Origin: Opitutus sp. GAS368
Lineage (GTDB): Bacteria > Verrucomicrobiota > Verrucomicrobiia > Opitutales > Opitutaceae
Reading direction: 5' to 3'
Assembly: GCA_945861645.1 (NCBI GenBank)
Contig: CAMAVZ010000027.1
Location: 1 to 25,962 of the forward strand
DNA: 25,962 nucleotides
Below the pieces are notes generated by a model. That model did no database searches, had not been told where the DNA came from, and saw only the letters and a program-made list of their open reading frames with translations. The translations under genes were made by a program, and so were the position numbers. This document shows positions 1,108 to 25,962 of this stretch, in pieces (the first letter of the stretch is position 1; every line of letters begins with the position of its first letter).

Positions 1108-1126
1108 GGCAGGGTAGGACCAAGGA

Positions 1127-8509: not shown

Positions 8510-9795
8510 GAGCGATTGAGTTGGCGGGCCCCAATATCACGGCGAAAATAACGAGAACGACACTGAATCTGGTCGCAGGTCGCATACGCGCGCGCGGCTG
8601 CTTCGCGGAGCGTGGTGGCGAGGGACGTGACGCCCAGCACGCGGCCGCCATTAGTCACGATTTGCCCAGCAGGATTTTTGGCGGTGCCAGCATGATAAAT
8701 GCAAGTTTGCGGGGCGAGATCTGCGGCCGCGGGGAGCGTGATGACATCGCCTCGGTTAAAAGCCTCTGGGTAACCATGAGCTGCGATGACGACGCACAGC
8801 GCATAATCCGGTTTTACCTCAAGCGTGAAGTGGCGCAGTTGATTGGTGGCTGCAGCCCACAGGAGGGCGAGTAAATCAGTGGCGAGGCGCGGGAGTACGA
8901 CTTGAGTTTCGGGGTCGCCGAAGCGCGCGTTATATTCGATCACGCTGGGGCCTGCGGGGGTGAGCATGATGCCAATGAAAAGCGTGCCGCGATAATGCAT
9001 ACCTTCATCGGCAATGGCATTGACGGAAGGGCGGACGATTTCATTTTCGATTCGGGTGAGTAGCGCGGGGGTGACGACTTCCGCCGGAGAATAAGTGCCC
9101 ATGCCGCCGGTGTTGGGGCCGGTATCGCCATCGCCAATCCGCTTGTGATCCTGCGAGGTGGGTAAAATTACGTAATCTCGTCCTGCGACGACCACCAGCA
9201 GGGAGGTTTCTTCGCCCCAAAGGCAGTCCTCGATAAGAATGCGGCTACCCGCCGCGCCGAATTTATTCCCCGCCAGCATGTCATGAACCGCGGCCTCCGC
9301 TTCGGCCGATGATTGGGCGACCACGACCCCTTTGCCTGCGGCTAATCCATCCGCCTTGATAACGATAGGCGCAGAGCGCGAGCGTAGATAGTCTAAGGCA
9401 GGGCCAACTTGCGTAAAAAATCCCGCGGCCGCGGTGGGGATTTTATATTTTAAGAGAATTTCTTTGGTGAACGTTTTGGAAGCTTCGAGCCGGGCCCCAT
9501 CAGCCGTTGGGCCATAAACAGGAATACCTGCCGCCAGTAATTGATCGGCGAGCCCGAGCGACAGCGGCACTTCGGGGCCGACGACCACTAATTCGACGCG
9601 TTCCCGTTGGGCCAGCGCTACCAAGCCCGTGATATCATCCACCGGCACCGTAAAGCAGGTTACGGCTTCCGCGATCCCCGCATTGCCCGGTGCGCAGATT
9701 ACCCGCGGCTGGGTCGGCGAGGCGGTCAGTGATTTGACGAGTGCGTGTTCGCGTCCGCCGGAGCCGACAACAAGAACAGATTTGGGCAAAGGCAT
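8506..9795 (-). CDS. purD: phosphoribosylamine--glycine ligase
   Basis: Motifs VVGSGGREHAL, APGNAGI, VVVGPEVPL, VIKADGLAAGKGV, QDHKRIGDGDTGPNTGGMG, EYNARFGDPETQ and TNGGRVL. Confidence 0.98.
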   Translation of the reverse strand: MPLPKSVLVVGSGGREHALVKSLTASPTQPRVICAPGNAGIAEAVTCFTVPVDDITGLVALAQRERVELVVVGPEVPLSLGLADQLLAAGIPVYGPTADGARLEASKTFTKEILLKYKIPTAAAGFFTQVGPALDYLRSRSAPIVIKADGLAAGKGVVVAQSSAEAEAAVHDMLAGNKFGAAGSRILIEDCLWGEETSLLVVVAGRDYVILPTSQDHKRIGDGDTGPNTGGMGTYSPAEVVTPALLTRIENEIVRPSVNAIADEGMHYRGTLFIGIMLTPAGPSVIEYNARFGDPETQVVLPRLATDLLALLWAAATNQLRHFTLEVKPDYALCVVIAAHGYPEAFNRGDVITLPAAADLAPQTCIYHAGTAKNPAGQIVTNGGRVLGVTSLATTLREAAARAYATCDQIQCRSRYFRRDIGARQLNRS

Positions 9796-9907
9796 GAGGG
9801 AGGTGTTAGCGTTTAGCTCTCGGGCAACAAGATCTTACTGTCGGCAAAATTTTGAAAAAAATAATCGCTCAGGCGGGATCGTTTTGCCGGCAACGTCACT
9901 CGATCGA

Positions 9908-11815: not shown

Positions 11816-11990
11816 GGGATTGGCTAGCTTTAGGGGGGGAGCGCTGACTGACAAGCTTGCGCTGGCGTGGTTCCGGCCGTGATTTTTCTAGCCAAAGGGG
11901 TTGATTTTTAATTGAGGTTCTCCAAGTTCCGACGTTTTTAACGGCACAAAATCACTCGGGCCGTTTCTCAACCGAGTTTACCCATACGAT

Positions 11991-12776
11991 ATGAAATTCC
12001 CATCCAAGCTCACGGCCGCTCTCTTCGGCCTCGTTCTCCTCAACGCTGCTTCTGCGGAAGATGCGGTTAAATTTAACGTTCCCGGCGTGGCCGTCAGTCC
12101 CACCGCCGCGGCTAAACCAGCGGCCCCCAAGTTCACCGAGGCGCAAATTGCCGAGGCCTATGGTTGGTACATGGGCGGACAAATGGGCTTGCGCCAAATG
12201 GAATTCACGCAGGCGCAAGTCGAAGCCATGGCGCGCGGCCTGATTGGGGCAGCGGCCGGCGGTCAGCCCTCTTTTGATGCGAAAGCTATCGGACCTGAGG
12301 TTGAAGCTTTCTTGGGCAAGAAAAATGAAGCCTTCATGACCAAATTGCGTTACCAGAATATGGCGGCGAGCACGGCCTTCTTTGAGCAACTTAAGGAAAA
12401 TAAAAACGTGGTCTCCCTTTCCAGCGGGCTGCGTTATGAGATCGTGAAGGCAGGTACGGGGGCGATGCCGCAACCCGGTCAACTGCTCACCATTCATTAT
12501 ACGGGGGCACTCGTTTCTGGCCAGATTTTCGACAATACGCGTGAGCGCGGTCAGCCGGCTGAACTCGTGTTACAGGATGGCGTCGTGATTCCCGGCATGT
12601 TCGAGGGCATGCAGAAAATTGGCATCGGTGGCACGATCAAGCTCTACATTCCGCCCTCGTTGGCTTACGGCGATCAGGGCAGCCAAGTGATTCCTCCGGG
12701 CGCGACACTCATCTTCGAGATCGAAGTGTTGAGCGCCAAGGAAGGACCGAAGGTGCCTGCTCCCGCGGCTAAATAA
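11991..12776 (+). CDS. periplasmic FKBP-type peptidyl-prolyl cis-trans isomerase (FkpA/Mip-like)
   Basis: Signal peptide; N-terminal helical dimerisation region; FKBP motifs SGLRYEI, IHYTGAL..GQIFD, VIPGMFEG, LYIPPSLAYG and IPPGATLIFEIEVL. Confidence 0.93.
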   Translation: MKFPSKLTAALFGLVLLNAASAEDAVKFNVPGVAVSPTAAAKPAAPKFTEAQIAEAYGWYMGGQMGLRQMEFTQAQVEAMARGLIGAAAGGQPSFDAKAIGPEVEAFLGKKNEAFMTKLRYQNMAASTAFFEQLKENKNVVSLSSGLRYEIVKAGTGAMPQPGQLLTIHYTGALVSGQIFDNTRERGQPAELVLQDGVVIPGMFEGMQKIGIGGTIKLYIPPSLAYGDQGSQVIPPGATLIFEIEVLSAKEGPKVPAPAAK

Positions 12777-12806
12777 GCCGGCGCGAGTTAAATTAATTTT
12801 GCCGAC

Positions 12807-12836
12807 AAAGCGCTTCCCGCAAGGGAGGCGCTTTTT
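12807..12836. terminator. intrinsic terminator, probably bidirectional, between the convergent FKBP and threonine aldolase genes
   Basis: AAAGCGCTTCCC-GCAA-GGGAGGCGCTTT: a 12-bp stem with one G-U pair, a GNRA loop, a T-run on the + side and an A-run on the other side. Confidence 0.85.
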
Positions 12837-13923
12837 ATTGTTTGGCTGAAGCGGCTGCTGGGCTGAGGACGGCGCGTAATTCAGCCGCGAATTGATCAAC
12901 AATGGCGGGAGTGGTGGCCCACGAACACATCAGGCGGTAACCATGTTCTCCAATGAAACGATAAAAATGCCAGCCACGGGCCCACATCGTTTCAGCGGCG
13001 GCGGTCGGTAGTTCGACAAAGAGACCGTTCACGGCAGGTGCGGTGATGAATTTTAATTGCGGCAGTGGGCGGAGTGCGGCGGCGAGGCGCTGCGTCATCG
13101 CGTTGGCGTGCGCGGCATGCTTGAGCCATGCGCCGGTCTCGAGCATGCCGACCCATTGGGCACTGGCGAACCGCTGCTTGGAGGCGAGTTGGGCCGCTTG
13201 CTTCACGCGGTAGTCGAATTCACGGGCCAGCTCGCGATTAAAGAAGACCACGGCTTCGGTGCTGTTCATGCCATTTTTAGTCCCGCCAAAGCTGAGCACG
13301 TCCACTCCCGCCCGCCAGGTGAAGTCGGCTGGGCTGATGCCGCGAGCCGCTAAGGCCGCGGCGGCGTTGGCGAAGCGGGCGCCGTCCATTTGCAGGGTCA
13401 GCTGGTGTTTTTTGGCCACGGCACTGAGCGCCCTGACTTCGTCGGGGGTATACAGTGTACCCCACTCAGTGGACTGCGTGAGCGAAAGTGCGCCGGCCTT
13501 AGAGTAGTGTACATCGGCGCGTTTGAGCGCTACCCGTTCGACATCAGTCGGCAGCAATTTTCCGTCAGGTCCAGCGACAGAGATGATTTTGGTCCCGCCG
13601 GTAAAAAATTCCGGCGCCGCGCATTCATCGTTATCTAAATGGGAATATTGATGACAGATGACGCTATGGTAACTGCGGCATAAGGCGGCTAGCGATAGGG
13701 CATTGGCGGCCGTGCCGTTGAAAATAAAATGAATGTCGCAGTTGGTTTCGAAAATATCGCGAATGAGAATTTTCGCGCGCTGCGTCCAGTCATCCTGCCC
13801 GTAGGAGGGCGCCGCTCCCTGATTGGCCGCATTCAGGGCGCTCAGGGCTTCCGGCGCCATCCCAGCTGTATTATCGCTAGCAAAACTGTAATCGTGGTGA
13901 ACTGCATGATCAGGGGAGGGCAT
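12835..13923 (-). CDS. ltaE: low-specificity L-threonine aldolase (PLP-dependent beta-eliminating lyase family)
   Basis: Motifs FASDNTAG, YGQDDWT, FNGTAANAL, DECAAPEFF, MDGARFANA, PLP-lysine SFGGTKNG and RLMCSWAT. Confidence 0.9.
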   Translation of the reverse strand: MPSPDHAVHHDYSFASDNTAGMAPEALSALNAANQGAAPSYGQDDWTQRAKILIRDIFETNCDIHFIFNGTAANALSLAALCRSYHSVICHQYSHLDNDECAAPEFFTGGTKIISVAGPDGKLLPTDVERVALKRADVHYSKAGALSLTQSTEWGTLYTPDEVRALSAVAKKHQLTLQMDGARFANAAAALAARGISPADFTWRAGVDVLSFGGTKNGMNSTEAVVFFNRELAREFDYRVKQAAQLASKQRFASAQWVGMLETGAWLKHAAHANAMTQRLAAALRPLPQLKFITAPAVNGLFVELPTAAAETMWARGWHFYRFIGEHGYRLMCSWATTPAIVDQFAAELRAVLSPAAASAKQ

Positions 13924-14078
13924 GGCGTTACAGGATAGAATTATTATCTAGCCTTGAACAGGGTGAATTTATTCAAGGCCCGCGCGGTGACCAACTAGCG
14001 ATGGGCGCGGCGCAGGCGTCGCGGCCCTTAACCCGTTCTTGCACCCGTGACTTTCGCGGTGTTCGTTAGGTGCAACGA

Positions 14079-14615
14079 ATGACTGTTGCGAATCTCAATC
14101 TCTACCTTGTGGGGTTCATGGGTACGGGTAAAAGTACCATTGGCCGATTGCTGGCGCGGCAGCTCAATTTTCAATTTCTCGACAGCGATCACGAAATCGA
14201 GCGGACGCAAGGCAAGGCGGTGACGCAGATTTTTGCGGAGGAAGGGGAGGCTAAATTTCGTGAACTCGAACTGGCTTTTATTGAGCACGGTCATCCGACG
14301 CAGGGTTGCATTGTCGCCTGTGGCGGTGGCTTGGTGGTACCTCCGGGGCGCCGAGAATTGCTGAAGAGTCGTGGAATGGTGATTTGTTTGCACGCCTCGG
14401 TTGAGACTATTCTGGAACGAACCTTGCACACCAACCACCGCCCGCTGCTGCAAGTGGCGGATCCCGCGGAACGGGTGCGCACGCTTTATGCCCAGCGCGA
14501 AGCAATTTATCGTGGAATGGGGACCATGGTGCTGACGGATCATCGGTCCATGAAGGAAATCGCGGCACACGTCCTGCGGGTTTATCGGCAAGAGGCTCGG
14601 TCGACAAAATCATGA
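14079..14615 (+). CDS. aroK: shikimate kinase
   Basis: Walker A GFMGTGKST, plus FLDSDHEIE, GEAKFRELE, ACGGG and RPLL. Start is ATG 14079 (alternative GTG 14070). Confidence 0.95.
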   Translation: MTVANLNLYLVGFMGTGKSTIGRLLARQLNFQFLDSDHEIERTQGKAVTQIFAEEGEAKFRELELAFIEHGHPTQGCIVACGGGLVVPPGRRELLKSRGMVICLHASVETILERTLHTNHRPLLQVADPAERVRTLYAQREAIYRGMGTMVLTDHRSMKEIAAHVLRVYRQEARSTKS

Positions 14616-15823
14616 CAGCCAGTGCGGGCGCAGCGGTAACCGGTGAGCGCCGCGAGCTGCTGCGTCGCCGATTGCAGGCTTTGGGTTTTGATGAAGTGCG
14701 TTTTGCGGCGGTGACATCCTTTGGTCGCGCCGGGCTGGCGCCATGGTTAGATCAAGGGCTGCAGGCGGATATGGCGTGGATGGAGCGAACCAAAGAAAAG
14801 CGGCTCAATCCCGATCTCGTCTTAGCGGGGGCGCGCACCGTTATTATTTTGGGCGTGAATTATGGGTCGCCCGCTGAGCGGCAAGCGCTCGCGGCCGCCG
14901 CGGGTGAAATGGGAAAGCCTGCGCGCGCTCCCGTTTGGGCGCGTTATGCGCTGCACGCTGATTATCATGATACGATCAAGCCAGGGCTAGCCGCAGCTGG
15001 GCGAGTGCTCGAGGAGATGGGCGGACTGGCCGCGACCGATTATCGTTACTCTGTCGATACGGGTCCTGTGTTGGAACGTGGCTGGGCCGCGCGCAGCGGT
15101 TTGGGTTTTCGCGGGAAAAATGCGATGCTGATCTCCAAGCAGCACGGGAATTGGCTTTTGCTCGCTTCGATCCTGACGCGTTGGGAGATCGCGGCTGATG
15201 AGCCGCTCCGCAAGAAACTGCCAACGCCTGACCAACTTGAGCCAACCGGTTTGCTGTGTGGAAAGTGTACGCGTTGTCTCGACGCGTGCCCCACCGCGGC
15301 CTTTGCGCAACCGGGGGTGATAGATGCGCGCCGCTGCATTTCCTATCACACGATTGAAAATAAGGGGATTATTCCCCGCGAATTGCGGCGCGGGATTGGC
15401 GCCCGCATTTATGGTTGCGATGTTTGTTTGGAGGTTTGCCCGTGGAATCGTTTCGCTCTGGCTGGTCGGCGGATGTTGCTCAGCGCGCGGGGGGATATTG
15501 CCGAGCTTGATTTAGGGGAGATTCTTGCCCTCACCCCACTGCGTTTTGCCGAGATTTTTAAAGGCACCGCCATCAAGCGACTCAAATTGGTTGGTCTCCT
15601 GCGTAATGCCTGCATCGTGGCGGCTAATACGGGCGCGGCTGATTTATTGCCGACCCTTCAGTCACTCGCCGCGCAGGCCTCGCCGATCGTTCGCGCTCAT
15701 GCGGTGTGGGCCGTGCAACAATTGGCCGGGGCGGCCTCGGCGCGGACGAGGCTCGCAGTCGCTCGATCGCGTGAAACTGATCCACTGGTTTTGGCGGAAT
15801 ATGATCAGGGCGCCGGTGACTAG
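14612..15823 (+). CDS. queG: tRNA epoxyqueuosine(34) reductase
   Basis: Motifs ARYA...DYH, VDTGPVLER..A.RSGLG..GKN, CGKCTRCLDACPT, RCISYHTIE, YGCDVCLEVCPWN and RNA; HEAT-like tail VRAHAVWA. ATGA overlap with aroK. Confidence 0.95.
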   Translation: MTASAGAAVTGERRELLRRRLQALGFDEVRFAAVTSFGRAGLAPWLDQGLQADMAWMERTKEKRLNPDLVLAGARTVIILGVNYGSPAERQALAAAAGEMGKPARAPVWARYALHADYHDTIKPGLAAAGRVLEEMGGLAATDYRYSVDTGPVLERGWAARSGLGFRGKNAMLISKQHGNWLLLASILTRWEIAADEPLRKKLPTPDQLEPTGLLCGKCTRCLDACPTAAFAQPGVIDARRCISYHTIENKGIIPRELRRGIGARIYGCDVCLEVCPWNRFALAGRRMLLSARGDIAELDLGEILALTPLRFAEIFKGTAIKRLKLVGLLRNACIVAANTGAADLLPTLQSLAAQASPIVRAHAVWAVQQLAGAASARTRLAVARSRETDPLVLAEYDQGAGD

Positions 15824-15840
15824 GCCGCGCAGGTCCAAAC

Positions 15841-16251
15841 TTAAGCTGCGGGCGGAAAATAGGCGCGCATTTTTTCGGTAAAGAGAGCCGGCGGGCGGAC
15901 GGGCTCGCCGGCTTTATTAATGAAGCCGTGGACGGTGAAGCCGGTGACGAGGAGGTCGTCACCACGACGAATTTCGTAATCAAGCCTGATGCGCAGCAGG
16001 GGACGCTCATGTAGCCGCGTAATGATCGTCACGGTATCGTCGTAGAGCGCTGGTTTGGCGAATTTCACCCCGAGTTCAACCACTGGCAGGAGATATCCCT
16101 GCGCTTCCAGTTCGCGGTAGGGCAGGCCGCATTCTTTGAGCAGCGTGGTGCGACCGACCTCAAACCAGGGCAAATAATTTCCGTGATAGACGATACCCAT
16201 CATATCAGTTTCAGCGTAGCGTACGGTGATCTGGGTGCGCGATTCGATCAT
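15841..16251 (-). CDS. YbgC/FadM-family acyl-CoA/acyl-ACP thioesterase (4HBT hotdog fold)
   Basis: Motif VRYAETDMMGIVYHGNYLPWFEVGRT and KPALYDD. Start set at ATG 16251, 4 nt after the upstream GT stop. Confidence 0.9.
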   Translation of the reverse strand: MIESRTQITVRYAETDMMGIVYHGNYLPWFEVGRTTLLKECGLPYRELEAQGYLLPVVELGVKFAKPALYDDTVTIITRLHERPLLRIRLDYEIRRGDDLLVTGFTVHGFINKAGEPVRPPALFTEKMRAYFPPAA

Positions 16252-16255
16252 GGGC

Positions 16256-17434
16256 TTAGGCGGTAAGGTTCGGATTGGTGGGTTGGCCGAGCAAAGATTG
16301 CACCGCATCGGTCCACGTATGGCGAATTGCTCGGATGCGACCAGCTTCGCCCAGACGGTGGCGCAGGGCGGGGTCGGCGATGAGTTGGGCAAAAGCGGCC
16401 GTCAGTGCGGCGATGTCGCCGGGGGCGACCAGCAAGCCAGTTTCTCCATGCGCCACGGCCTCGGGTACGCCGCCGATAGCGTGCGCAATAATCGGGAGGC
16501 CATGCGCGCCGGCTTCGAGATACACGAGGCCAAAGCCCTCGATGCTTTGTCTGTGCGGCATGCTCGTCATCGCAAAGATATCGGCTTGAGCATAAATATC
16601 ACTCAGTTGGTCATCGGGAATATCGCCTAGAAATTTTACCGGAAAATCTGCCTCCTGCGCAGCGGTGGTGAGTGCGTCGTCGTACTTATCATTGCCGTGC
16701 GATCCGACGAGCCAGTATTCAAGTGAGGCGCGCTGATCGGCCGGCAGCGCTTGGAGCGCGGCGATGACTTGCAGCTGGCCTTTCCGTGGGTTGAGGCGGG
16801 CCACGGTCAGGATGATCGTTTTGGGCTTGGGGTGGGGCCGCCTTTCTAGCGCGCACGAGGAGAGATCAGTGCGCAGGGCCCCTGGAGTAATCACGGCTTT
16901 AGTTACCGCGGCGGGAAAATGTTGGCGTAGGAGGTCCAGCGCAAAGGCGCTTACTACGCCAATCCGGGTGGCCTTGCGTAGGAGATGGGTGGTGCTCCAG
17001 CGCAAAATCCAACGGGAGGCTAACCATTGAATTTCTGACCCATGAAAGGTGAGCACGAGTTGCGCTGGCTTTAGGCGATCGAAATATTGCAAAAAAAGCA
17101 GGGCGAGGAGGGGGCCGGGCTCAGGCACATACAAAATTGCAGATCGCAAGCGCTGACGATTGGCGATGAGTCGTCGAGCCATGCGCCATTGGCTCAATAA
17201 ACTGTGGTTGCCGGCCATGGGCAGGCGTTCGATCTGATAGTTGCGCGGTAATTCGAGCACACCTGGCGGAAGGGCTGGGGCCCAGACTTCGACCGCATAG
17301 CCTAAATCTCGGGCAGCTCGTGCCATCTCGGTGGCATAGACCGCGATACCCCCGCGGTGGGGAAAGAATTCATGGGTAACCAGAATCAGCGGCTCGTTAT
17401 GCTGAGTGGGTTTTTTGAGGGGGGGGCGCGACAT
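16256..17434 (-). CDS. GT4 (GT-B retaining) glycosyltransferase, PimB'-like
   Basis: Motifs EFFPHRGGI, TFHGSE, LTVARLNPRKG and the EX7E motif IEGFGLVYLEA. Confidence 0.9.
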   Translation of the reverse strand: MSRPPLKKPTQHNEPLILVTHEFFPHRGGIAVYATEMARAARDLGYAVEVWAPALPPGVLELPRNYQIERLPMAGNHSLLSQWRMARRLIANRQRLRSAILYVPEPGPLLALLFLQYFDRLKPAQLVLTFHGSEIQWLASRWILRWSTTHLLRKATRIGVVSAFALDLLRQHFPAAVTKAVITPGALRTDLSSCALERRPHPKPKTIILTVARLNPRKGQLQVIAALQALPADQRASLEYWLVGSHGNDKYDDALTTAAQEADFPVKFLGDIPDDQLSDIYAQADIFAMTSMPHRQSIEGFGLVYLEAGAHGLPIIAHAIGGVPEAVAHGETGLLVAPGDIAALTAAFAQLIADPALRHRLGEAGRIRAIRHTWTDAVQSLLGQPTNPNLTA

Positions 17435-17604
17435 CAGTCGAATTAGGATGATTAAATCAGAGAGCGACTACTGAGGGATGACCCAAAAATGAAGTCGGAT
17501 GTGGCCCCGTAAACATCAGCAAGTCAATCGGCTAAACTGGGGGGGCGGCACAGAGGGCTATCTTTTGGGTTTACAAAATCCCGACCTTCCCATTGATTAC
17601 TTAA

Positions 17605-18540
17605 ATGGCTCCTACTGTACACACTGCTAGCGGATTTCAGCTAAAACCTTTTACATCCGAAGATGACGCAAATCTTCGCGAGGCCCTTAAGCGCTGTTCA
17701 GCGGCAACTTATGAGTCTGCCGCCCAGTTCCGGAAGACAGGTAACACCGAGCATTTACCGGCCATTGTTTTGGGCATAATTGAGCGCTATATTGAACCTG
17801 ATCTCAGGGGTAAACTTAAGGATGCTGATGATGATCTCCGGATCATCGAAGATCTCGGCATTGATTCACTCACGATGATGGAAGTCGTGATCTTGGTGGA
17901 GGATGTGCTCCAATTGACCATCAATAACGAAGAGTTACGCCACTTACGGTCGGTGGGTGATGTTAAAACTTTCTTGGATTGTAAGGTCCGTGGCTTGCCC
18001 CTGCCGCAGCCCACCAAATTTATCCCTATCGAGCAGATCATGACGGTCATGCCGATCCAGCCGCCGTTTCTTTTTCTCGGCGAGGCTACCGTGGGTGCTC
18101 ATGGTGCCAATGCTAAGTACAAGATCAGCGGGCAGGAATTTTTTCTCCAAGGACATTTTAAGGATAATCCAATATTACCTGCCTCCATTATGTTAGAGGC
18201 GCTTGGGCAACTCGCCGTACTTTTTCTCCTCGAGGGGCAAGTGGGCGAAGCCGGCAAGGTGGTGGATCCGAAGATGATTTTCTTCACTTCGTGTGAAGGT
18301 GTCCGCTGTCATCGGATGTGTCGTCCTGGCGATGTCCTCAACTTATCAATTAAGCCGAAGCGCTTGAAGGCGCCGCTGGCCACCTTCGAAGGTCAGATTC
18401 GCGTTGGTCAGGAAAAAGCGGCGATTGCGGAAGAAATCACGCTCACGTTTGGCTTTGCCGACGTCGTTGCTCAGCCTGTCCCGCAAGCTGAACCCGCTGC
18501 TATTTCGGACGCCCCTAATAAGGCGGTCGTCAACGCCTGA
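17605..18540 (+). CDS. fusion of an acyl carrier protein and a FabZ-like 3-hydroxyacyl-ACP dehydratase
   Basis: ACP motif EDLGIDSLTMMEVVILVED (Ser88). FabZ-like MPIQPPFLFL, FFLQGHF (His184), PILPASIMLEALGQ (Glu198) and RPGDVL. Confidence 0.88.
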   Translation: MAPTVHTASGFQLKPFTSEDDANLREALKRCSAATYESAAQFRKTGNTEHLPAIVLGIIERYIEPDLRGKLKDADDDLRIIEDLGIDSLTMMEVVILVEDVLQLTINNEELRHLRSVGDVKTFLDCKVRGLPLPQPTKFIPIEQIMTVMPIQPPFLFLGEATVGAHGANAKYKISGQEFFLQGHFKDNPILPASIMLEALGQLAVLFLLEGQVGEAGKVVDPKMIFFTSCEGVRCHRMCRPGDVLNLSIKPKRLKAPLATFEGQIRVGQEKAAIAEEITLTFGFADVVAQPVPQAEPAAISDAPNKAVVNA

Positions 18541-18651
18541 ACCGGCGGGACTTGGTTGGCGTGCGGCGGTGGTTGACCGTCTGACTAAAAGCGTTTTCAT
18601 ACGCTGCAAGGCAGTCGTGGCTAATCGAGCGACGGGTGCGTTTTAATTAAT

Positions 18652-19911
18652 ATGCGGAAAGTTTATATTACGGGGGTCGGTTTTATTACGAGCATAGGCA
18701 ATGATGCGGTCGCTGTTTCCGATAGTTTACGGGAGTTGCGGCATGGGATGATCCAATACCAGCCGTTTCAAAAAGCTGATGTGCCGGTCAAAGTGGCTGC
18801 GCCGATTCGCAATTTTATCACAGATACCACTGAGGCGGAGGATTGGGTTTTCCCTGCGCGTTATAACCTGCGGCGGGAAGTTCTTCGTGGCATGGCGCCC
18901 CATGGAGTTTATGCTTACTGTGCGATGCAGCAAGCGGTGGAGGATGCTAAATTATCGGAAGCTGATTACTCTAATCCCCATACAGGCTTATATGCGGCTT
19001 CAGGCGGCTCACCTTTCTTATTGGGTTATTATTTAGAGCGGATGCGGAAATATGGGGTGATGCGCTGTCAGCCGCTCGGGATTGTCGCCTCAATTTCCGG
19101 CACAGTTAATTTCAACCTCGTTTCGCAATTTAAAATTAAGGGGGCTTCCACGGGATTTTCATCGGCCTGCGCCTCCTCGGCTCATGCGATGGGTTTTGCC
19201 TACGATGAAATTGCGCTCGGTCGGCAGAACCGGATGTTTGTGGTGGGGGGTGAGGATGGTAACGTAGAGAGCATTTTACCTTTTGCGGGCATGCGCGCTC
19301 TCTCGCTGCAATCTGATCCAGCCCTGGCTTCGCGGCCCTTTGATGTGGCGCGCGACGGTTTTGTCGGCACGGGCGGCGGGGCGGTCTTGGTGCTCGAAAG
19401 CGAGGAGGAAGTTGAGCGCCGCGGGGCCAAAATTTACTGTGAGCTCGCGGGTTGGGGGCAAGGATCAGATGGACACAATGTGGCTATTTCTCACCCCGAG
19501 GGAGCCGGGCTGCAGCTCGCGATCGAAAATGCGCTCCGCGCTGCTGGAGTAGGGGCCGACGAGGTAGATTATATTAATGCCCACGCTACCTCGACCCCGA
19601 TTGGCGATATTTCAGAGGCCAAAGCGATTCGGGCCATTTTTAAAAATAATCTAGCGCGCACAGCCATCAGCAGCACCAAGGCGCTCACTGGTCATGGGCT
19701 CTCCCTGTCAGGCGCCATGGAAGCTGGTTTTTGTGCGCTCGCCATTAAGGAAGGGTTTATGCCCGGATCGGCCCATATCACGAAAATCGATCCGGCCTGT
19801 GCGGGCCTCAATATTATCCGGGCGACATTGCCGCAGCGCCCTCAGGTGGTGCTGAGCAACAGTTGCGGCTTTGGTGGGGCTAATGTCACTTTGGTCTTTC
19901 GTGCGGTCTAA
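18652..19911 (+). CDS. beta-ketoacyl-ACP synthase, FabB (KAS I)-like
   Basis: Cys-His-His triad in SSACASSAH, INAHATST and KALTGHGL; also SRPFDVARDGFV and C-terminal SNSCGFGGAN. Confidence 0.92.
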   Translation: MRKVYITGVGFITSIGNDAVAVSDSLRELRHGMIQYQPFQKADVPVKVAAPIRNFITDTTEAEDWVFPARYNLRREVLRGMAPHGVYAYCAMQQAVEDAKLSEADYSNPHTGLYAASGGSPFLLGYYLERMRKYGVMRCQPLGIVASISGTVNFNLVSQFKIKGASTGFSSACASSAHAMGFAYDEIALGRQNRMFVVGGEDGNVESILPFAGMRALSLQSDPALASRPFDVARDGFVGTGGGAVLVLESEEEVERRGAKIYCELAGWGQGSDGHNVAISHPEGAGLQLAIENALRAAGVGADEVDYINAHATSTPIGDISEAKAIRAIFKNNLARTAISSTKALTGHGLSLSGAMEAGFCALAIKEGFMPGSAHITKIDPACAGLNIIRATLPQRPQVVLSNSCGFGGANVTLVFRAV

Positions 19912-19914
19912 CGC

Positions 19915-20757
19915 ATGAGCGCTATTCGTCTTTCGACCCGCTATCGCACCGCTTTTGTGACCGGGGCGAGTACTGGGCTAGGCTTGGCCTTTACCGATAT
20001 GTTACTGGCGCAGGGCGTTGAGGTTTGGGGTACCGCGCGCGATACGATTCGTCTGCCGGCGCGGCCGGGCTTTCATGCGGTTGCGCTCGAGCTGGGTGAT
20101 GGCTCCGCGGCGGAAGCGATATTTCTTGCGGCCGAGCAGGCCGCGGGGGGCTTTGATATAGTGATTAACAATGCTGGTTTTGGGGCCTTTGGGGCTTTCG
20201 CCCACACTGAGTTTGCCGTCTGGGAAGAACAACTTCGGCTGATGTTAGTTAATACGGCGCGGCTCAGTCATGTCGCCCTGCGCGGTATGCTCGCGCGCCG
20301 GCGTGGGGCGCTGGTTAATATCTCATCGATTGCGGGTGAATTCGGGCTGCCCTATCAGGCCATCTATAATACGACCAAGGCGGGCCTTTCGGCTCTCAAC
20401 GAAAGCTTGATGTATGAGCTGTCTGGCACTGGCGTTATCATGATCGATTTTCGGCCGGGTGATTACCGGACTAATTTTGAAGGTTCAGTGCGCCGCCCAG
20501 AGCAAGCGGTTGGTTGGGTTCATGACACAATCAACACCGCACGGATGAGCCGCGCCTGGTCCTCTTTTGTGGCACTCATGCGTTCTGGTCCCGCGCCGGT
20601 TCATGCGGCAGAATCATTGCGCCGTACCCTCCTGCGTGGTCGGAGTGGCACGGTGCGGACCGGACGTTTTGTCCAAGCTCACCTCGGGCCCTTTTTAGCG
20701 CGCTTCGGTTCTTTGGCTTTCAAGCGCAAAGTGCAGGGAAAATATTTCGGACTCTAA
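19915..20757 (+). CDS. classical SDR NAD(P)-dependent oxidoreductase
   Basis: Motifs TGASTGLG, INNAGFG, NISS, YNTTK and RPGDYRT. Starts 3 nt after the ketosynthase stop. Confidence 0.9.
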   Translation: MSAIRLSTRYRTAFVTGASTGLGLAFTDMLLAQGVEVWGTARDTIRLPARPGFHAVALELGDGSAAEAIFLAAEQAAGGFDIVINNAGFGAFGAFAHTEFAVWEEQLRLMLVNTARLSHVALRGMLARRRGALVNISSIAGEFGLPYQAIYNTTKAGLSALNESLMYELSGTGVIMIDFRPGDYRTNFEGSVRRPEQAVGWVHDTINTARMSRAWSSFVALMRSGPAPVHAAESLRRTLLRGRSGTVRTGRFVQAHLGPFLARFGSLAFKRKVQGKYFGL

Positions 20758-20825
20758 AGTTGCGGAATTCCTTTTAGCTGATGCGCTGGCTCTCTTTCTT
20801 GGATAGTATTTCGCTTTTATAAATC

Positions 20826-22040
20826 ATGGCTCGCGTACGCATCCTTGTTCTCACCTCAAGCACTGGCGCTGGTCATGATACGCGGGCGCAGGCTTTTGCG
20901 GAGTGGTGCTTTGAACTTTATCGGCACGAGGTCGATGTGCGCATTGAGCAGATGCTCGAGAAGTCCTCCGGTTTTTTTAGCGCCGGCGTGCATTTCTATA
21001 ATTGGATTCAGAAGAAATCACCCTGGGTGCATAAAGGTTTTTATCTTTTTGTAGAGTTACTGAGTTGGCTTAATCGGCGGACGGTTACCTTCGGGCGCAC
21101 TTATTACGAATCAGTGCTGCGGGAATATCAGCCGCATCTCGTGTTCAGCGTGCATGATTGCTTGAATCGGGGGTATTTTCAAATGGCTAAGAGGATTCTG
21201 GGCTCCGAGCGGGTGCGCTGCGCCACTTACTGCGGCGAATTTTCCGGTGGTTTTGGCTATAGTATCAATTGGGTAGAACCGAGCGCAGACCTCTATGTGT
21301 CGCGCACCGACACCGCTCGCGATTATGCGGTCAAGCTCGGTATGCCCGTGGCGCGGACGCAAGTCCGCGGCTACTTGATGCAACCGCGCTCATCGATTGA
21401 GGTATTTAATGCTAAAAATCGGGCGGACTATTTATCAGCAACGCTGCATCTGCGTCCCGACTTGTTCACGGTGTTCCTCGCCACGGGGGGGAATGGCGCC
21501 AACAACCATGTGGAGCTTTTGGCCAAGTTGCTGTCGTATGCGGATAAAATCCAAGCGATCGTAATTTGTGGCAATAATCGCGAAGCTTATAATCAGTTGG
21601 TGCGTTGGCGGGCAGCGCATCCCCAGCTCAATTGCTTTGTGGATGGTTTTTCGGAGGAAGTGCATCTCCTCATGCAAGTCAGTGATGTCATTGTGACTCG
21701 GGGCGGCACGACCACCTGCGCCAAGGCGCTGCATTTTCGCTGCCCCATCATTTTTAACGCCCTCGGGGGCATTATGCCGCAGGAAGAATTAACTGTAAAA
21801 TTTTTTCAACGGGGGGCCGGCGTGGAACGAATTAATAACGCCGCGGATTTTGAGACGATTATCGCCGCTTGGATGGCTGATCGGTCGGTTTACGATCGCT
21901 TGCGCCATAATTTCCTAAAATTGCGCTATGAGGAAACCCCCACGGTTCTGATCACCGAGCTGGTTGATTTAGCGCAGCAGGTGGCGGGTACTTCAATCAA
22001 ACCCCGTCCATTTTCACCTAAAGCGTACGGGCCGCAGTGA
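20826..22040 (+). CDS. GT28-type glycolipid synthase (MGDG synthase/UgtP-like)
   Basis: Motifs ILVLTSSTGAGH, VICGNN, LMQVSDVIVTRGGTTT and PQEE. Confidence 0.82.
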   Translation: MARVRILVLTSSTGAGHDTRAQAFAEWCFELYRHEVDVRIEQMLEKSSGFFSAGVHFYNWIQKKSPWVHKGFYLFVELLSWLNRRTVTFGRTYYESVLREYQPHLVFSVHDCLNRGYFQMAKRILGSERVRCATYCGEFSGGFGYSINWVEPSADLYVSRTDTARDYAVKLGMPVARTQVRGYLMQPRSSIEVFNAKNRADYLSATLHLRPDLFTVFLATGGNGANNHVELLAKLLSYADKIQAIVICGNNREAYNQLVRWRAAHPQLNCFVDGFSEEVHLLMQVSDVIVTRGGTTTCAKALHFRCPIIFNALGGIMPQEELTVKFFQRGAGVERINNAADFETIIAAWMADRSVYDRLRHNFLKLRYEETPTVLITELVDLAQQVAGTSIKPRPFSPKAYGPQ

Positions 22041-22175
22041 AGAGTTCGGCCCAGGACCCAGGGGCAGCCACCGGCGCCTCGGTGCTAACCGGACTCAACG
22101 GGAGGCAGGATGGCGCCTGATTTTCCTGCTTTCCTGAGCCCTGCATTATGCGTTGGCTGGTAGTCGCCCCGCGCG

Positions 22176-23405
22176 ATGTCTCGTCCCCCTTCCATAGCCC
22201 TGATTTTTACGACGTTTCCAAAGGTTTCCGAAACCTTTCTGCAACGTGATGTTTTGGCGCTCCAGGCGCAGGGAATCCGGCTGAAACTCTATTCATTGTG
22301 GGGCGGCGGGGGTGAGTTTAGCGGTATGACGGTGCAGCGTTTTCCTAAGTGGCGGCTGCTGCCGTTAATTATTTTTACGATTCCGTGGAATTGCTTTCGT
22401 CGGCCGCGCATCGTGCGCGATCTTTTCGCGGGAGTGCTGACGCGGGGAGCGCCCTCTTGGTTGAATTTTTGGGAAAACATGCTCGGGGCCGGTTTTGCGG
22501 GCTGTTATTATCGCCAATTTCGGCAGGATCCGCCGGCCTTGGTGCACGGAGCTTGGGCGGGTGCGCCCGCCACGGCCGGTTGGCTACTCGGTCGGATAGC
22601 TGGCTGGCGCTATAGCACGGGGGCGCATGCCTATGATATTTATGAGCACGGTGGTGATTGGTGGTTGCAGGAAAAATTACAGCACGCGCAATTTATTCAT
22701 ACCTCAACCGAGATGGGGCGTTGCGAATTAATCACCCGCGGGGTATCCGCTGATAAAATTATCTGTATCCGTCGCGGGCTGGAGACTTTTCCTCCTTGCA
22801 AGCCGCTCCGTTTAAATCGTCGTCCACTGCGCTTGTTGTGTATTGCCCGACTCGTGCCGAAGAAAGGATTGTTCCACCAACTGAGAATCTACGCCGCGCT
22901 TAAGCAAGCGGGACTAGCCTTTGAGGCGCGGGTGGTGGGGGATGGCCCCCTCCGCGCATCACTCGAAGCGGCCGTGCAAACGCTAGATTTAGGCGCAGAG
23001 GTAAAATTTATAGGCCATCAAGGATCGGCCGCCGTTTGGTCGGAATTGGCTTGGGCTGATGTGTTGCTGCATACGGGAATTATTGCCCCGAGTGGCGATC
23101 GGGATGGGTTGCCGAACGTGATTCCCGAGGCGATGGCCGCGGGCGTGCTCGTGGTCACTTCGCCGGTTTCAGCCACGACCGAGGCTATTCATGACGAACT
23201 AACCGGCTTGGTGGCGGCCGTCGAAGCGCCGCTCGCTTGGGTAAATGCCCTGCGCCGATTGAGTGAAGATGATGAGTTGGCTGAGCGCTTGCGTGTGGCG
23301 GCGCGCCATTGGGTGGAGGAACACTACGATGCGCATAAGAATACTGCGCAATTGATCCATTGTTTTCGGCGCGCGATGGACCATGAGACTCACGGTCATG
23401 AATAA
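22176..23405 (+). CDS. GT4 glycosyltransferase, WcaL-like
   Basis: Motifs FPKVSETF, AHAYDIY, IARLVPKKG, VGDGPLR and GDRDGLPNVIPEAMAAG. Confidence 0.88.
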   Translation: MSRPPSIALIFTTFPKVSETFLQRDVLALQAQGIRLKLYSLWGGGGEFSGMTVQRFPKWRLLPLIIFTIPWNCFRRPRIVRDLFAGVLTRGAPSWLNFWENMLGAGFAGCYYRQFRQDPPALVHGAWAGAPATAGWLLGRIAGWRYSTGAHAYDIYEHGGDWWLQEKLQHAQFIHTSTEMGRCELITRGVSADKIICIRRGLETFPPCKPLRLNRRPLRLLCIARLVPKKGLFHQLRIYAALKQAGLAFEARVVGDGPLRASLEAAVQTLDLGAEVKFIGHQGSAAVWSELAWADVLLHTGIIAPSGDRDGLPNVIPEAMAAGVLVVTSPVSATTEAIHDELTGLVAAVEAPLAWVNALRRLSEDDELAERLRVAARHWVEEHYDAHKNTAQLIHCFRRAMDHETHGHE

Positions 23406-23485
23406 TTTTCCGCCGCTGGCCCAAGGTCATTTCCGTCGTGCCCTCTCGTGGCGATGGATTAATCTTTTTTTGACCTAATCCTGCT

Positions 23486-24538
23486 ATGATTTATTATGAT
23501 ATCACCAAGATGGGCGCCGCGCAGCATCGCTCGGGTTTGATGCGGCTAACTTCGCGGTTGATGGAAGAGCTCGGCGGTCATGTCACGGCGGTGGTTTGGG
23601 ATAATTCGCGGCGGACATTTTTGACTCACGCCCAAAAAATATCGGTAAATTTTACTCCCGCCGACTGGTTGCTCACGGTGGAGATGTTCAGCAAGGTCGA
23701 GCGGCCAGGTTTTTCTGATTTTGTGCATCATCCCCCCTGCCGATTGGCGGCGGTGTTTCATGATGCTATTCCGATTAAATTTCCTCACATCACGTGGCCG
23801 CAGAGCGTTCAGCGGCATCCGGAGTACATGAAATTATTGGCGAGTTTTGATCGGACGTGGGCCATCTCTGAGGCGACTCGGCAGGATTTTACGGGCTTCT
23901 GGCATTGGCAGGGGGTCGTATCGAAGGGCCCGGTAGAGGTCATCGAACTCGGCGCAGATTTTGATGGGAGCGATCGCGTGCAGCGCGATCCCCGATCGAC
24001 GCCAGGCCGCCCAGCGCTGGTGTGCGTGGGGATTGTCGAGCCGAGAAAAAATCAGGGCTTTCTGCTGGAAGTGGCGGAGACTTTATGGGGGGAGGGCGTG
24101 AATTTTGAACTACATGTCGTGGGTCGAGTAAATCCTCACTTTGGTCGCCCGTTACTTAAACGCATGCGAGCACTCGAGGATCGGCAGAAGCTTTTCCATT
24201 TTTATGCACAAGTCAGCGATCAGGAATTAGGTCGCCTGTACGCAAACGCGCGGGCCGTCGTTTTCCCGACGATTGCGGAAGGCTGTGGCTTGCCGCTGCG
24301 CGAAGCTTTATGGCGAGGTGTGCCGTGCGTGTGCAGTGACCTGCCGGTCTTGCGCGAGAATGCCGCGGCGGGGGGCTGTCTTTTGGCGCAGGTTAATCAT
24401 CACTCGGATTGGCAGAAACAATTGCGCGGCCTCTTGACGAATGAGGCAGATTATCAGCGCCTACAAACTGAGGCCATGGCGCGACCATTACCCCGGTGGG
24501 CCGATACCGCGCGGACGTTATTGCAGGCTTTGCGCTAA
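23486..24538 (+). CDS. GT4 glycosyltransferase
   Basis: Motifs FHDAIP, VGIVEPRKN, the EX7E motif AEGCGLPLREAL, and CSDLPVLRE. Confidence 0.88.
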   Translation: MIYYDITKMGAAQHRSGLMRLTSRLMEELGGHVTAVVWDNSRRTFLTHAQKISVNFTPADWLLTVEMFSKVERPGFSDFVHHPPCRLAAVFHDAIPIKFPHITWPQSVQRHPEYMKLLASFDRTWAISEATRQDFTGFWHWQGVVSKGPVEVIELGADFDGSDRVQRDPRSTPGRPALVCVGIVEPRKNQGFLLEVAETLWGEGVNFELHVVGRVNPHFGRPLLKRMRALEDRQKLFHFYAQVSDQELGRLYANARAVVFPTIAEGCGLPLREALWRGVPCVCSDLPVLRENAAAGGCLLAQVNHHSDWQKQLRGLLTNEADYQRLQTEAMARPLPRWADTARTLLQALR

Positions 24539-24539
24539 C

Positions 24540-25739
24540 TTACATTTGCTTCACCGCATAGGCCATGGCGGTGGCAATTTTATCTAAATCTTCCTCACTA
24601 TGCAGAGCAGAGACGGCCGTGCGAATCAGATCCTTGCTGGGCGGAACCGCGGGCGCGATCGACATGACTGTGAATACGCCTTTCTCCAATAGGGCTTGCC
24701 AGAAACGGTAGACGAGTTCTTTCGATCCCAGCACAATCGGCACGGCGGGGGTTTCGCTCTCCCAGGTATCGAGGCCAAGGCCTTTCAGCATCTCACGGTA
24801 GCGCTTGGTGTTTTTCCACAGTTTAGCCAGGTGCTCGGGTTCCGATTGCATGAGCTCAAGCGAGGTCGTCGCGGCCGCCGCTTGGCTCGGGGCGAGCGCG
24901 GCGCTGAAGAGGGTTTGTTTGGAATGGCTCCGCAGATATTCGATGAGCTCGCGCGAGCCCGCAATAAAGCCGCCCGTGCTAGCGAGCGATTTCGACATCG
25001 AGCCGCAAATAATGTCGACCTTATCGTTCAGTTGAAAGTGATCGACAGTGCCGCGGCCTTGGCGGCCTAGAATGCCGAAACCATGAGCGTCATCGACCAC
25101 CAGAAAGGAACCGGACTCCTCGCTGGTGCGGGCGATTTCAGGCAGGCGACAGATATGTCCTTCCATGGAATAAACGCCTTCTACGACGATCATTTTTGGC
25201 GTCTTCGATTCAAGGGCCTGCAAGATTTGGCGAAGATCTTCTGGGTTGTTGTGGCTGAAGCGTTCGACGGCCGCACTCGACAAGCGCACGCCGTCCCACA
25301 GGCACGAGTGGATATTTTTATCCGCCAGGATGGTGTCCCCTTTCTGGGCAAAAGTTGCGACCGCCGAGATGCAAGAAACATAGCCCGCCACACTGACGTG
25401 GCAGGCCTCGCGCCCGAGGAAGGCCGCCAGTTTTTCCTCGAGCACGGTATGGTAAGCCCGCGAGCCGTTGGAGATCCGCGCGCCGGTGGTGCTGGAGCCC
25501 CAAGTCCTGGCTCCTTGCGCGCAGGCTTCGATCACTTTGGGGTGAAAGGAAAGTCCAAGGTAATCGTTACTTGAGAGCATTACCATTTGGCGGCCTTGCA
25601 GCTGGATCTTGGTCCCTTTTTGGGCCTCCATGGCATGGTAGTAGGGCTTATATTTCAGCCGCATCTTGGTCGCATAATCATCTCGCGCTCGGGCGATGAT
25701 CGCTTTGCTCGTTTTGGTCGTGAATAGGGACAGAGGCAT
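24540..25739 (-). CDS. PLP-dependent alpha-oxoamine synthase, serine palmitoyltransferase-like
   Basis: Motifs SNDYLGL, TTGARISNG, His144 (NIHSC), EGVYSMEG, DDAH, GSMSKS (Lys250), LFSAAL and PAVP..DLIR. The family call is confident; SPT versus BioF or Kbl is an inference. Confidence 0.85.
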   Translation of the reverse strand: MPLSLFTTKTSKAIIARARDDYATKMRLKYKPYYHAMEAQKGTKIQLQGRQMVMLSSNDYLGLSFHPKVIEACAQGARTWGSSTTGARISNGSRAYHTVLEEKLAAFLGREACHVSVAGYVSCISAVATFAQKGDTILADKNIHSCLWDGVRLSSAAVERFSHNNPEDLRQILQALESKTPKMIVVEGVYSMEGHICRLPEIARTSEESGSFLVVDDAHGFGILGRQGRGTVDHFQLNDKVDIICGSMSKSLASTGGFIAGSRELIEYLRSHSKQTLFSAALAPSQAAAATTSLELMQSEPEHLAKLWKNTKRYREMLKGLGLDTWESETPAVPIVLGSKELVYRFWQALLEKGVFTVMSIAPAVPPSKDLIRTAVSALHSEEDLDKIATAMAYAVKQM

Positions 25740-25753
25740 GGAAATTGCGTGGG

Positions 25754-25782
25754 ACTAAAGGTCAGTGAATGATGCTAAGCAA
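25754..25782 (-). promoter_or_regulatory. candidate sigma70-type promoter for the SPT-like gene
   Basis: Minus strand TTGCTT-N17-TTTAGT, ending 14 nt upstream of the ATG at 25739. Confidence 0.3.
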
Positions 25783-25797
25783 CCGCAAAGCCTTGGC

Positions 25798-25962
25798 TCA
25801 AGCGCGGCGCGGCAGGGCGCGCAGCCACGTCGTGAAATCGGTGGCGTACTCTGGCCACGTTTTCAGGTGGCGGGCGCGGGCCTGAGCTGCGAGCTGCACA
25901 ACTTCGGCTGGATTTTTAATCAATCGGCCTAACGTTGCGGCGAGATTATGGGCATCGACTGA
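25798..25962 (-). CDS. C-terminal fragment of a GT4-type glycosyltransferase, truncated by the window edge and absent from the ORF track
   Basis: Manual translation gives SVDAHNLAATLGRLIKNPAEVVQLAAQARARHLKTWPEYATDFTTWLRALPRRA*. This parallels the C-terminus of 23486..24538 (QVNHHSDWQKQLRGLLTNEADYQRLQTEAMARPLPRWADTARTL). Confidence 0.7.
   Translation of the reverse strand, partial: SVDAHNLAATLGRLIKNPAEVVQLAAQARARHLKTWPEYATDFTTWLRALPRRA

Follow-up and report, generated by a model that had tools for sequence, protein, structure and literature searches.

Which product is made by the lipid and sugar genes that lie at positions 15841 to 25962 of a 25,962-nucleotide stretch of DNA (the window) from Opitutus sp. 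GAS368? The Opitutales, the order of Verrucomicrobiota to which this bacterium belongs, abound in lakes, soils and guts as degraders of polysaccharides and, to our knowledge, almost nothing is known of their envelope lipids beyond phosphatidylethanolamine (PE), phosphatidylglycerol (PG) and diphosphatidylglycerol (DPG). The gene cluster, present in about half of the genera of the order, combines a private fatty-acid module with an enzyme that condenses an amino acid and with a series of glycosyltransferases (GTs), and so predicts a specific lipid or lipoglycan. Judged from sequence comparisons, its probable product is a cell-surface amino-lipid that carries sugars and has not been described before. 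More specifically, the region could be the core of an Opitutales-wide pathway in which a glycosylated long-chain amino-lipid with a sphingoid-type base is built on a private carrier, a reading that we hold tentatively, at a little short of an even chance.

An earlier note on this DNA had listed nine adjacent lipid and sugar genes and a tenth that runs off the window. All nine open reading frames (ORFs) of 15841-25739 were found in place with the domains named (Pfam, NCBIfam), the tenth gene, of GT family 4 (GT4), leaving the contig, and the catalytic motifs that could be read in the encoded proteins were all intact. The forward strand carries a fusion of an acyl carrier protein with a FabZ/FabA-like hot-dog dehydratase (ACP-DH; 17605-18540; PP-binding 24.2 bits, FabA 57.8 bits), a FabB-like elongating beta-ketoacyl-ACP synthase (KS; 18652-19911; assigned by Pfam and its Cys-His-His triad), a classical short-chain dehydrogenase/reductase of 280 residues with a C-terminal extension (SDR; 19915-20757; adh_short 106.5 bits), a GT28-like lipid glycosyltransferase of the monogalactosyldiacylglycerol (MGDG)-synthase/UgtP type (20826-22040; Glyco_tran_28_C 29.9 bits against 22, E 7e-7) and two GT4 enzymes assigned by Pfam, GT4b (22176-23405) and GT4c (23486-24538), the latter in a slot of variable content. 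Convergent with GT4c, on the reverse strand, is a pyridoxal phosphate (PLP)-dependent alpha-oxoamine synthase (AOS; 24540-25739), which matched Aminotran_1_2 over its whole length (161.8 bits, residues 51-391). A further GT4 (GT4a) and a thioesterase lie on the reverse strand, divergent from the ACP-DH operon.

The linkage of these genes was followed in 151 Opitutales genomes of at least 85% completeness, among which kin are not independent, so that the counts describe a pattern rather than a test. AOS orthologues (54-100% identity) were present in 80 of the 151 genomes, which spread over 50 of 90 genera; 75 genomes had the two-domain ACP-DH. Both genes were found in 71 genomes, a single one in 13 (AOS only in 9, ACP-DH only in 4) and neither in 67. 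Within the Opitutaceae, the order AOS-GT4c-GT4b was kept in 65 of the 66 loci with at least 2.6 kb of flank, and the full run from AOS to ACP-DH, in the order of the window, in 20 of the 47 with at least 9.5 kb, several of which continue through GT4a, the thioesterase, QueG and AroK. AOS and ACP-DH were adjacent in at least eleven families, and both synteny and co-occurrence persisted across families at 55-65% AOS identity. As the grouping is conserved across families, it goes far beyond chance. The co-conservation that the earlier note had asked for is therefore there, and AOS, lipid genes and GTs belong to a single unit that is conserved, inherited together and functionally linked. The named relatives of the window genes are metagenome-assembled genomes (MAGs) and isolates labelled Opitutaceae, Opitutia, Lacunisphaera, Oleiharenicola, Opitutus and Didemnitutus, in agreement with the window being part of an Opitutaceae MAG; isolates that carry the cluster include an Oleiharenicola with a complete genome and a strain of O. 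lentus.

The shape of this unit was analysed in 60 outside loci, 40 centred on AOS in other genera and families and 20 centred on ACP-DH, in most of which AOS is distant or missing. ACP-DH lay within 9.4 kb of AOS in 18 of the 40 and GT4b in 21, and 14 had no other gene of the cluster within that distance. Around ACP-DH, the KS was adjacent in 16 of 20 loci and GT4b in 15, and one family has GT4c, GT4b, GT28, SDR, KS and ACP-DH, then GT4a, thioesterase and AroK, all without AOS. These counts point to a constant core of ACP-DH, KS, GT4b and, less strictly, GT28, which AOS, SDR and GT4a accompany in varying order. Unbiased clustering of the ORFs of the 60 loci returned as recurrent neighbours a divergent GT9 (11 loci), another GT4 (8), TyrS (7), a GT2 (6) and an MBL-fold protein (6), whereas no acyltransferase family recurred in at least 6 loci. 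In other families, the slot of GT4c is held by a GT9 (11/60) or a GT2 (6/60). The spacer between GT4b and GT28 ranged from 82 to 6576 nt in 29 loci, the long ones holding LysR, LeuCD and GH43 genes; since this spacer varies, the cluster can be seen as two blocks able to drift apart.

Some details of these loci were recorded separately. In loci of the same genus (L014:5251-10288 and L015:9689-15243, among others), genes for LysR, LeuC, LeuD and a GH43 xylosidase stand between GT4b and GT28, and the window, whose genome is smaller, shows the compact arrangement, with a gap of 135 nt. A DH-only homologue was present in 5 of the 9 AOS-only genomes and adjoins AOS in one of them, where the order is AOS, GT4b, a DH lacking the ACP domain and TyrS (L161, G067:C2, 7485-12077); DH-only homologues also occur in ten other genomes, with about 50% identity to the DH half. 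A 360-residue tRNA-synthetase-like gene, considered as a replacement of the KS, turned out to be TyrS, a housekeeping neighbour. A protein of 282 residues beside AOS (L116:8147-8995 and L115:10765-11598) matched GINT1_N, the N-terminal domain of plant glucosamine inositolphosphorylceramide transferase 1, at 139.8 bits; it was discarded as a general part of the cluster, being found in two loci of one genus of another family.

The AOS has the sequence SMSK with Lys250, which we take to be the Schiff-base lysine, and DDAHG at residues 215-219, whose Asp and His are presumably PLP contacts. Its highest NCBIfam scores were those for serine palmitoyltransferases (SPTs; models NF047600, NF047599 and NF047603), all of them below the respective cut-offs: SPT-CFB 368.1 vs. 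640, SPT-beta 351.7 vs. 500 and, further down, SPT-alpha 254.2 vs. 670. Next came BioF (TIGR00858, 328.5 vs. 426.45) and Kbl (309.3 vs. 460), followed by ALAS (233 vs. 339) and CqsA-type enzymes (229 vs. 428), the lowest among the AOS models. The solved structures gave a similar picture, headed by a Sphingobacterium SPT (296 bits), with a BioF/Kbl enzyme as the next non-SPT (245 bits), the Sphingomonas SPTs at 218-235 bits, Kbl at 217, cysteate-C-fatty acyltransferase at 203 and BioF at 199 or less; CAI-1 synthase and related entries were also among them. Among 1.84 billion representatives, a single full-length protein outside the AOS's own protein cluster was more than 50% identical to it, all others being at 42% or less.

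A tree of 65 rows was built from 57 near-full-length sequences out of the best 150 representatives, leaving out fused and fragmentary matches, together with eight sequences of our own; the 57 were labelled with NCBIfam, and a single row of the tree was over an SPT cut-off. The Opitutales AOS formed their own clade (SH-aLRT support 100, stem 0.67), outside an 11-row clade that passes the BioF/Kbl cut-offs (95) and outside a 30-row SPT-like group (91), the backbone being unresolved, with 31 of 62 inner branches under 80. A tree that forces the Opitutales AOS and BioF/Kbl into one clade was 2.08 log-likelihood units worse and was not rejected by the approximately unbiased (AU) test (p-AU 0.455). 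The 'SPT-like' label of the earlier note thus holds for the best scores and fails for the cut-offs, while the tree does not decide on it: the AOS appears as a separate clade, is not filed in the SPT family and is not shown to be an SPT.

A true Kbl paralogue is encoded on another contig of the same genome (C28; 600 bits vs. a cut-off of 460), and bioB, bioA and bioD were over cut-off in none of five genomes of the genus (our genome, G008, G024, G002 and G017, four of them 95-100% complete), whereas control genomes have them. Because of this true Kbl elsewhere and the missing bioA, bioB and bioD, the AOS would be neither the Kbl of the cell nor an enzyme of a biotin pathway and, on gene content, it does no BioF or Kbl work. 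With regard to the grouping with BioF or Kbl that the earlier note had named as speaking against its proposal, such a role falls away and a sister position is left standing by the AU test. As a separate observation, the genus is probably a biotin auxotroph, given the gene content of the five genomes.

In the ACP-DH, the ACP domain spans residues ~65-126, with GIDSL and Ser88, and the dehydratase residues ~140-276, with His184 and Glu199; the protein also matches solved FabZ and ACP structures, and reaches 67 bits with FabZ models (cut-off 113) and 37.5 with the ACP model (cut-off 84). The ten best ESM Atlas clusters all share the fusion, most of their members with an ApeI-like dehydratase label, and it appears to be a Verrucomicrobiota architecture, seen mainly in such clusters. 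The KS has the triad Cys173/His311/His348, and its nearest solved structures are all KAS I/FabB (272 bits vs. ~221 for FabF); with 331 bits for the KAS I model (cut-off 630) and 320 for the FabF model (494), it is no housekeeping equivalog. The other KS genes of the genome are on contigs C12 and C9, the FabF-like one on C12, and its FabZ is part of an LpxC-FabZ fusion on C25. By these scores and locations, the ACP, DH and KS of the cluster come on top of the housekeeping FabF and LpxC-FabZ. The cluster encodes neither an enoyl reductase nor an acyl-ACP synthetase, and none of its domains, besides the AOS, belongs to an acyltransferase.

The SDR has the motifs TGxxxGxG and Tyr151/Lys155, and its top NCBIfam matches are generic. 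It scored 96 bits with FabG (cut-off 222) and 97.5-97.7 with KdsR (NF049977, cut-off 400), two other SDRs of the genome score higher with the latter, and no KdsR-type reductase was over cut-off in the five genomes searched. A KdsR-type 3-ketosphinganine reductase is thus not what the scores indicate, and the protein may be either the ketoreductase of the chain module or a reductase of the amino-ketone.

Two other loci of this genome touch on fatty-acid enzymes. The LpxC-FabZ fusion (C25:914-2239) consists of LpxC in an open frame of 503 residues with a FabZ-like match directly after it (1817-2239), like PRK13188. On C9 (55058-62532; L165:3058-10533), a second private fatty-acid or polyketide-like cluster reaches the contig end, with a cut KS, a stand-alone ACP, two amine-oxidase/phytoene-desaturase-like FAD enzymes, a FabA-like dehydratase, an SDR of the enoyl-ACP-reductase type, a KAS III-like enzyme and an alpha/beta hydrolase.

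The only solved relatives of the GT28-like protein are the processive diacylglycerol (DAG) beta-glucosyltransferase (58.8 bits) and plant MGD1 (46 bits), in agreement with its proposed nature as a lipid glycosyltransferase; with the diglucosyl-DAG synthase/UgtP equivalog it scored 76.7 against 500. In loci of other genomes, GT4b is the GT most constantly tied to ACP-DH/KS and to AOS. GT4a (16256-17434, reverse strand; Glycos_transf_1 125.9 bits, Glyco_transf_4 60.2 bits) reached no NCBIfam equivalog; it accompanies the cluster and, in other families, often forms a pair with the SDR. Downstream of it and on the same strand, in a pair kept in relatives, is the acyl thioesterase of the 4HBT/YbgC type (15841-16392; 4HBT_2 49.5 bits; TIGR00051, YbgC/FadM subfamily, 73.4 vs. 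68.7). As its family alignment begins at residue 48-56, Met48 is the probable true start (15841-16251). The 170 nt between the divergent GT4a and ACP-DH (17435-17604, from the ORF coordinates) are presumed to be a promoter region; a consensus scan of this intergenic stretch gave no promoter, and no Rfam family was found in it.

As the window is the whole of contig C27 (from an assembly of 2.30 Mb in 116 contigs, 84% complete), the flank past 25962 could be read in relatives only. The contig end cuts a GT4 on the reverse strand, of which the last 54 codons are present (25798-25962; 89-91% identical to the end of its counterpart in the closest relatives). In these relatives, with AOS 92-97% identical, this GT4 has 412 residues and is preceded on the same strand by a PMT_2/GT-C-type membrane transferase of 497 residues; this gene order makes AOS the final member of a GT-C, GT4, AOS operon that runs towards GT4c. 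Divergent genes upstream of it encode a protein of 560 residues that scores 137.5 against 150 for the 'AZOBR_p60025 family cell surface glycopolymer formation protein', two uncharacterised proteins, a flippase-like LPG_synthase_TM protein and a methyltransferase. Among the genes that the earlier note had proposed to look for beyond the end, a flippase-like one is therefore present, whereas the upstream flank of the relatives has no GNAT acyltransferase, AMP-dependent ligase or phosphopantetheinyl transferase.

On these family assignments and this linkage a route can be laid out, each chemical step of which we infer. The FabD of the cell would charge the ACP domain with malonate, and the KS would condense malonyl-ACP with an acyl primer from ordinary fatty-acid synthesis, placing the chain on the private ACP and lengthening it by two carbons in each of one or more elongations; loading by the KS is suggested by its Cys-His-His triad together with the absence of an acyl-ACP synthetase. 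The SDR or FabG, with the fused dehydratase, would then process the beta-carbon to give an enoyl-ACP or, after FabI, a saturated acyl-ACP. The AOS, the only acyl-transferring enzyme that travels with the module, would off-load the chain by decarboxylative Claisen condensation with an amino acid, serine being the likeliest partner, to give a 2-amino-3-keto lipid, the ketone of which the SDR may reduce. The GT28 would add the first sugar to a lipid hydroxyl and GT4b, GT4a and GT4c would extend it, an order suggested by the families and by the conserved gene order. Finally, the GT4, GT-C, glycopolymer and flippase-like genes of the relatives suggest export and extension at the outer face. A bolder version of this route, which we regard as distinctly doubtful, would have an undescribed lipid class beside ordinary lipopolysaccharide (LPS): an oligoglycosylated sphingoid-type base, loaded by a KS in an 'elongate-to-load' manner, perhaps with a 2,3-unsaturated chain that yields a 4,5-unsaturated sphingosine-like base without a desaturase or a known ceramide synthase, and flipped and extended by GT-C into a lipoglycan whose outer sugars vary by family (the GT4c/GT9/GT2 slot).

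No characterised pathway with this layout turned up in print, supplementary lists lying outside the scope, just as the earlier note had supposed. In its logic, the cluster comes closest to the bacterial sphingolipid pathway of Caulobacter, Sphingomonas and Bacteroidota, with which it shares an AOS as committing enzyme, a dedicated ACP (Caulobacter, where it presumably adjoins spt) and lipid-decorating GTs. That pathway is outlined as a three-enzyme scheme of Spt, bCerS and CerR (PMC11087976), the ceramide glycosyltransferases Sgt1/Sgt2 are described as decorating its products (PMC6445935), and 22 MAGs of Verrucomicrobiota encode 'Spt-like' proteins according to a survey (PMC11334938). Here, in contrast, the AOS scores under all SPT cut-offs and branches as a clade of its own. 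The ACP shares a polypeptide with a dehydratase, and the genes suggest that a KS rather than an acyl-ACP synthetase would load it. A KdsR-type reductase and a linked N-acyltransferase are both lacking, the first GT is GT28-like, and the neighbours include GT-C and flippase-like genes.

Other known systems share parts of the layout. In the biosyntheses of fumonisin, sphingofungin, myriocin and capnine/sulfonolipids, an AOS transfers a carrier-built chain to an amino acid, and an SDR reduces the product. The likeness lies in this off-loading and in the SDR, cysteate-C-fatty acyltransferase being among the solved relatives of our AOS (203 bits), whereas these systems use type I polyketide synthases or plain acyl-CoA/ACP and have no MGDG-synthase-like GT with a train of GT4s; none of this type was found in the literature for Verrucomicrobiota. 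With MGDG synthase and UgtP, the GT28 shares the fold family and falls far below the equivalog cut-off given above. In rhizobia, the cluster for very-long-chain fatty acids is given as acpXL-fabZXL-fabF2XL-fabF1XL-(adhA2XL)-lpxXL and feeds an envelope glycolipid (PMC5613085), so that a private ACP, a FabZ, a KS and a gene of the alcohol-dehydrogenase type likewise stand in one cluster. Here the ACP and the dehydratase are one polypeptide, one KS replaces two, and the AOS and several GTs stand in place of the LpxXL acyltransferase, no enzyme of this type being found in the window, in the upstream flank of relatives or among the families recurring in at least 6 of the 60 loci, with PF03279 not searched genome-wide. 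What would be new is thus the AOS clade, the ACP-DH fusion, the KS-based loading and the GT28-type first transferase, whereas the logic of an AOS-initiated amino-lipid is already known.

Several results weigh against a glycosylated sphingoid-type lipid. The missing N-acyltransferase remarked on in the earlier note is indeed missing: none, GNAT or other, is encoded in the window or in the upstream flank, or recurs near the cluster in relatives. Likewise, bCerS and CerR are absent from the window and its recurrent neighbours, no genome-wide search having been aimed at either. To these have to be added the AOS scores under all SPT cut-offs, its place outside the SPT-like group on an unresolved backbone, the AU test that leaves it free to join BioF/Kbl, the 14 of 40 AOS loci with no companion gene, the low KdsR score of the SDR, exceeded by two other SDRs of the genome, and the lack of an enoyl reductase in the cluster. 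A chemotaxonomic table (PMC13274419, Table 1) lists PE, PG and DPG only for Rariglobus and Nibricoccus and gives 'nd' for other Opitutaceae, and in the literature outside survey supplements neither a product nor such a lipid is reported for Opitutaceae or Verrucomicrobia. Finally, in other families divergent genes of the GT9 (heptosyltransferase) family lie between GT4b and AOS, and in two families Wzm/Wzt and an O-antigen-ligase gene lie near AOS. On the other side, the canonical LPS genes of the genome (LpxC, WaaA and three GT9) are on other contigs, which favours the amino-lipid. Since GT9, GT2, GT-C, flippase-like and O-antigen genes occur within or next to the cluster in relatives, it fits a lipoglycan or a product linked to LPS as well as it fits a simple glycosphingolipid.

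One alternative takes up these LPS-type neighbours: ACP-DH, KS and SDR would make a special lipid A chain (very long, hydroxy or unsaturated), the GTs would build outer core or O-chain, and the AOS would provide an amino-keto substituent or have a side role. We consider this unlikely, if still to be reckoned with. The rhizobial cluster has the same set of parts, with a FabZ, KS enzymes and an alcohol dehydrogenase beside a dedicated ACP (PMC5613085), GT9-family genes stand inside the cluster in 11 of 60 loci, AOS has Wzm/Wzt, a sulfotransferase and an O-antigen-ligase gene nearby in two genomes (G037 and G030) and BamA and LpxD beside it in a third (G143), and GT-C and 'cell surface glycopolymer formation' genes are upstream. 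Yet no acyltransferase, of the LpxXL/LpxL type or other, travels with the module, the GT9s of the cluster reach 51-76 bits against LPS heptosyltransferase cut-offs of 135-185 and matched none of the genome's own GT9 genes at the threshold used, the LpxC, WaaA and GT9 genes of the genus are located elsewhere, and the AOS, which accompanies ACP-DH in 71 of 75 genomes, is left without a role. In addition, we know of no GT28-type lipid GT in the known LPS pathways. A loosely coupled AOS, serving another step, is assumed by a second alternative, which looks doubtful to us, in which the private module supplies an unusual chain, released by the thioesterase, for a nitrogen-free glycosyl-diacylglycerol or hydroxy-fatty-acid glycoside made by GT28 and the GT4s. 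Pairs of FabB with FabA-type enzymes make unsaturated fatty acids, of which the FabB-like KS and the FabA/FabZ-like DH are reminiscent by analogy; the solved relatives of GT28 use diacylglycerol, ACP-DH, KS, GT28 and GT4b stay grouped where AOS is distant, and the thioesterase is conserved beside the module in two families (f1 and f36). It is found, however, in 8 of the 60 loci by the clustering used, and so is no constant part, and AOS and ACP-DH share their phyletic pattern (71/13/67) and their adjacency in at least eleven families.

The product might also diffuse away from the cell, as a glycosylated amino-ketone or amino-alcohol signal or antibiotic made by a logic like that of CqsA/LqsA or of the fungal sphinganine analogues. 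Pathways of this kind finish with an AOS, the solved relatives include CAI-1 synthase, and a carrier, a KS, a ketoreductase and a dehydratase without an enoyl reductase amount to a minimal polyketide-like set. What makes this quite improbable is that the cluster is kept vertically, in 50 of 90 genera and beside the housekeeping genes QueG, AroK, TyrS and PheA, that it has no transporter, regulator or resistance gene of its own, that CqsA-type models score lowest with the AOS (229 vs. 428), and that the many GTs with their GT-C and flippase-like neighbours point to an envelope glycoconjugate. Hardly tenable, in our view, is the absence of any common function, with adjacent unrelated genes and the AOS as a housekeeping BioF or Kbl. 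The LysR, LeuCD and GH43 genes between GT4b and GT28 in relatives and the AU test would fit it, but the true Kbl is encoded elsewhere, there is no biotin pathway, and in families whose AOS are 55-65% identical, synteny and co-occurrence are still kept.

Should a sphingoid glycolipid be the product, KS elongation onto a fused ACP would be a third, independent feed into the first step of bacterial sphingolipid synthesis, and the range of 'Spt-like' enzymes that can be counted in metagenome surveys would become wider. If the product is linked to LPS instead, a new way to tailor lipid A or core would be at hand. Under either reading, both the AOS clade and the ACP-DH fusion will be of use as markers.

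Contigs of RNA libraries (four freshwater metatranscriptome runs from two studies) matched parts of the thioesterase, GT4a, ACP-DH, KS, SDR, GT28 and AOS genes, many of them without a mismatch. These contigs carry neither strand nor ends, and the uncovered parts (e.g. 22829-23526) carry no meaning. The matches indicate that the population was present in those libraries and are compatible with expression of the cluster. No Rfam family reached its gathering score anywhere in the window, and a consensus scan of 15500-25962 gave 5 promoter-like sites where 6.4 ± 2.7 were expected and 23 terminator-like sites against 14.2 ± 3.5, none of them informatively placed.

The remainder of the window (1-15823) is filled with housekeeping genes, including those for RsmB, SHMT, PurD, FKBP, AroK and QueG. 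Three proteins in this part, all encoded on the reverse strand, have unusual architectures. One of 617 residues (1229-3082) has GreA/GreB domains only in its last ~160 residues, its N-terminal part of ~450 residues being without a Pfam match. Another of 648 residues (9908-11854), which adjoins PurD in a relative too, matches LOG/'lysine decarboxylase' only at residues 557-639. The third (169-1107) is a fusion of an ArsR-type helix-turn-helix to an S-adenosylmethionine-dependent methyltransferase domain.

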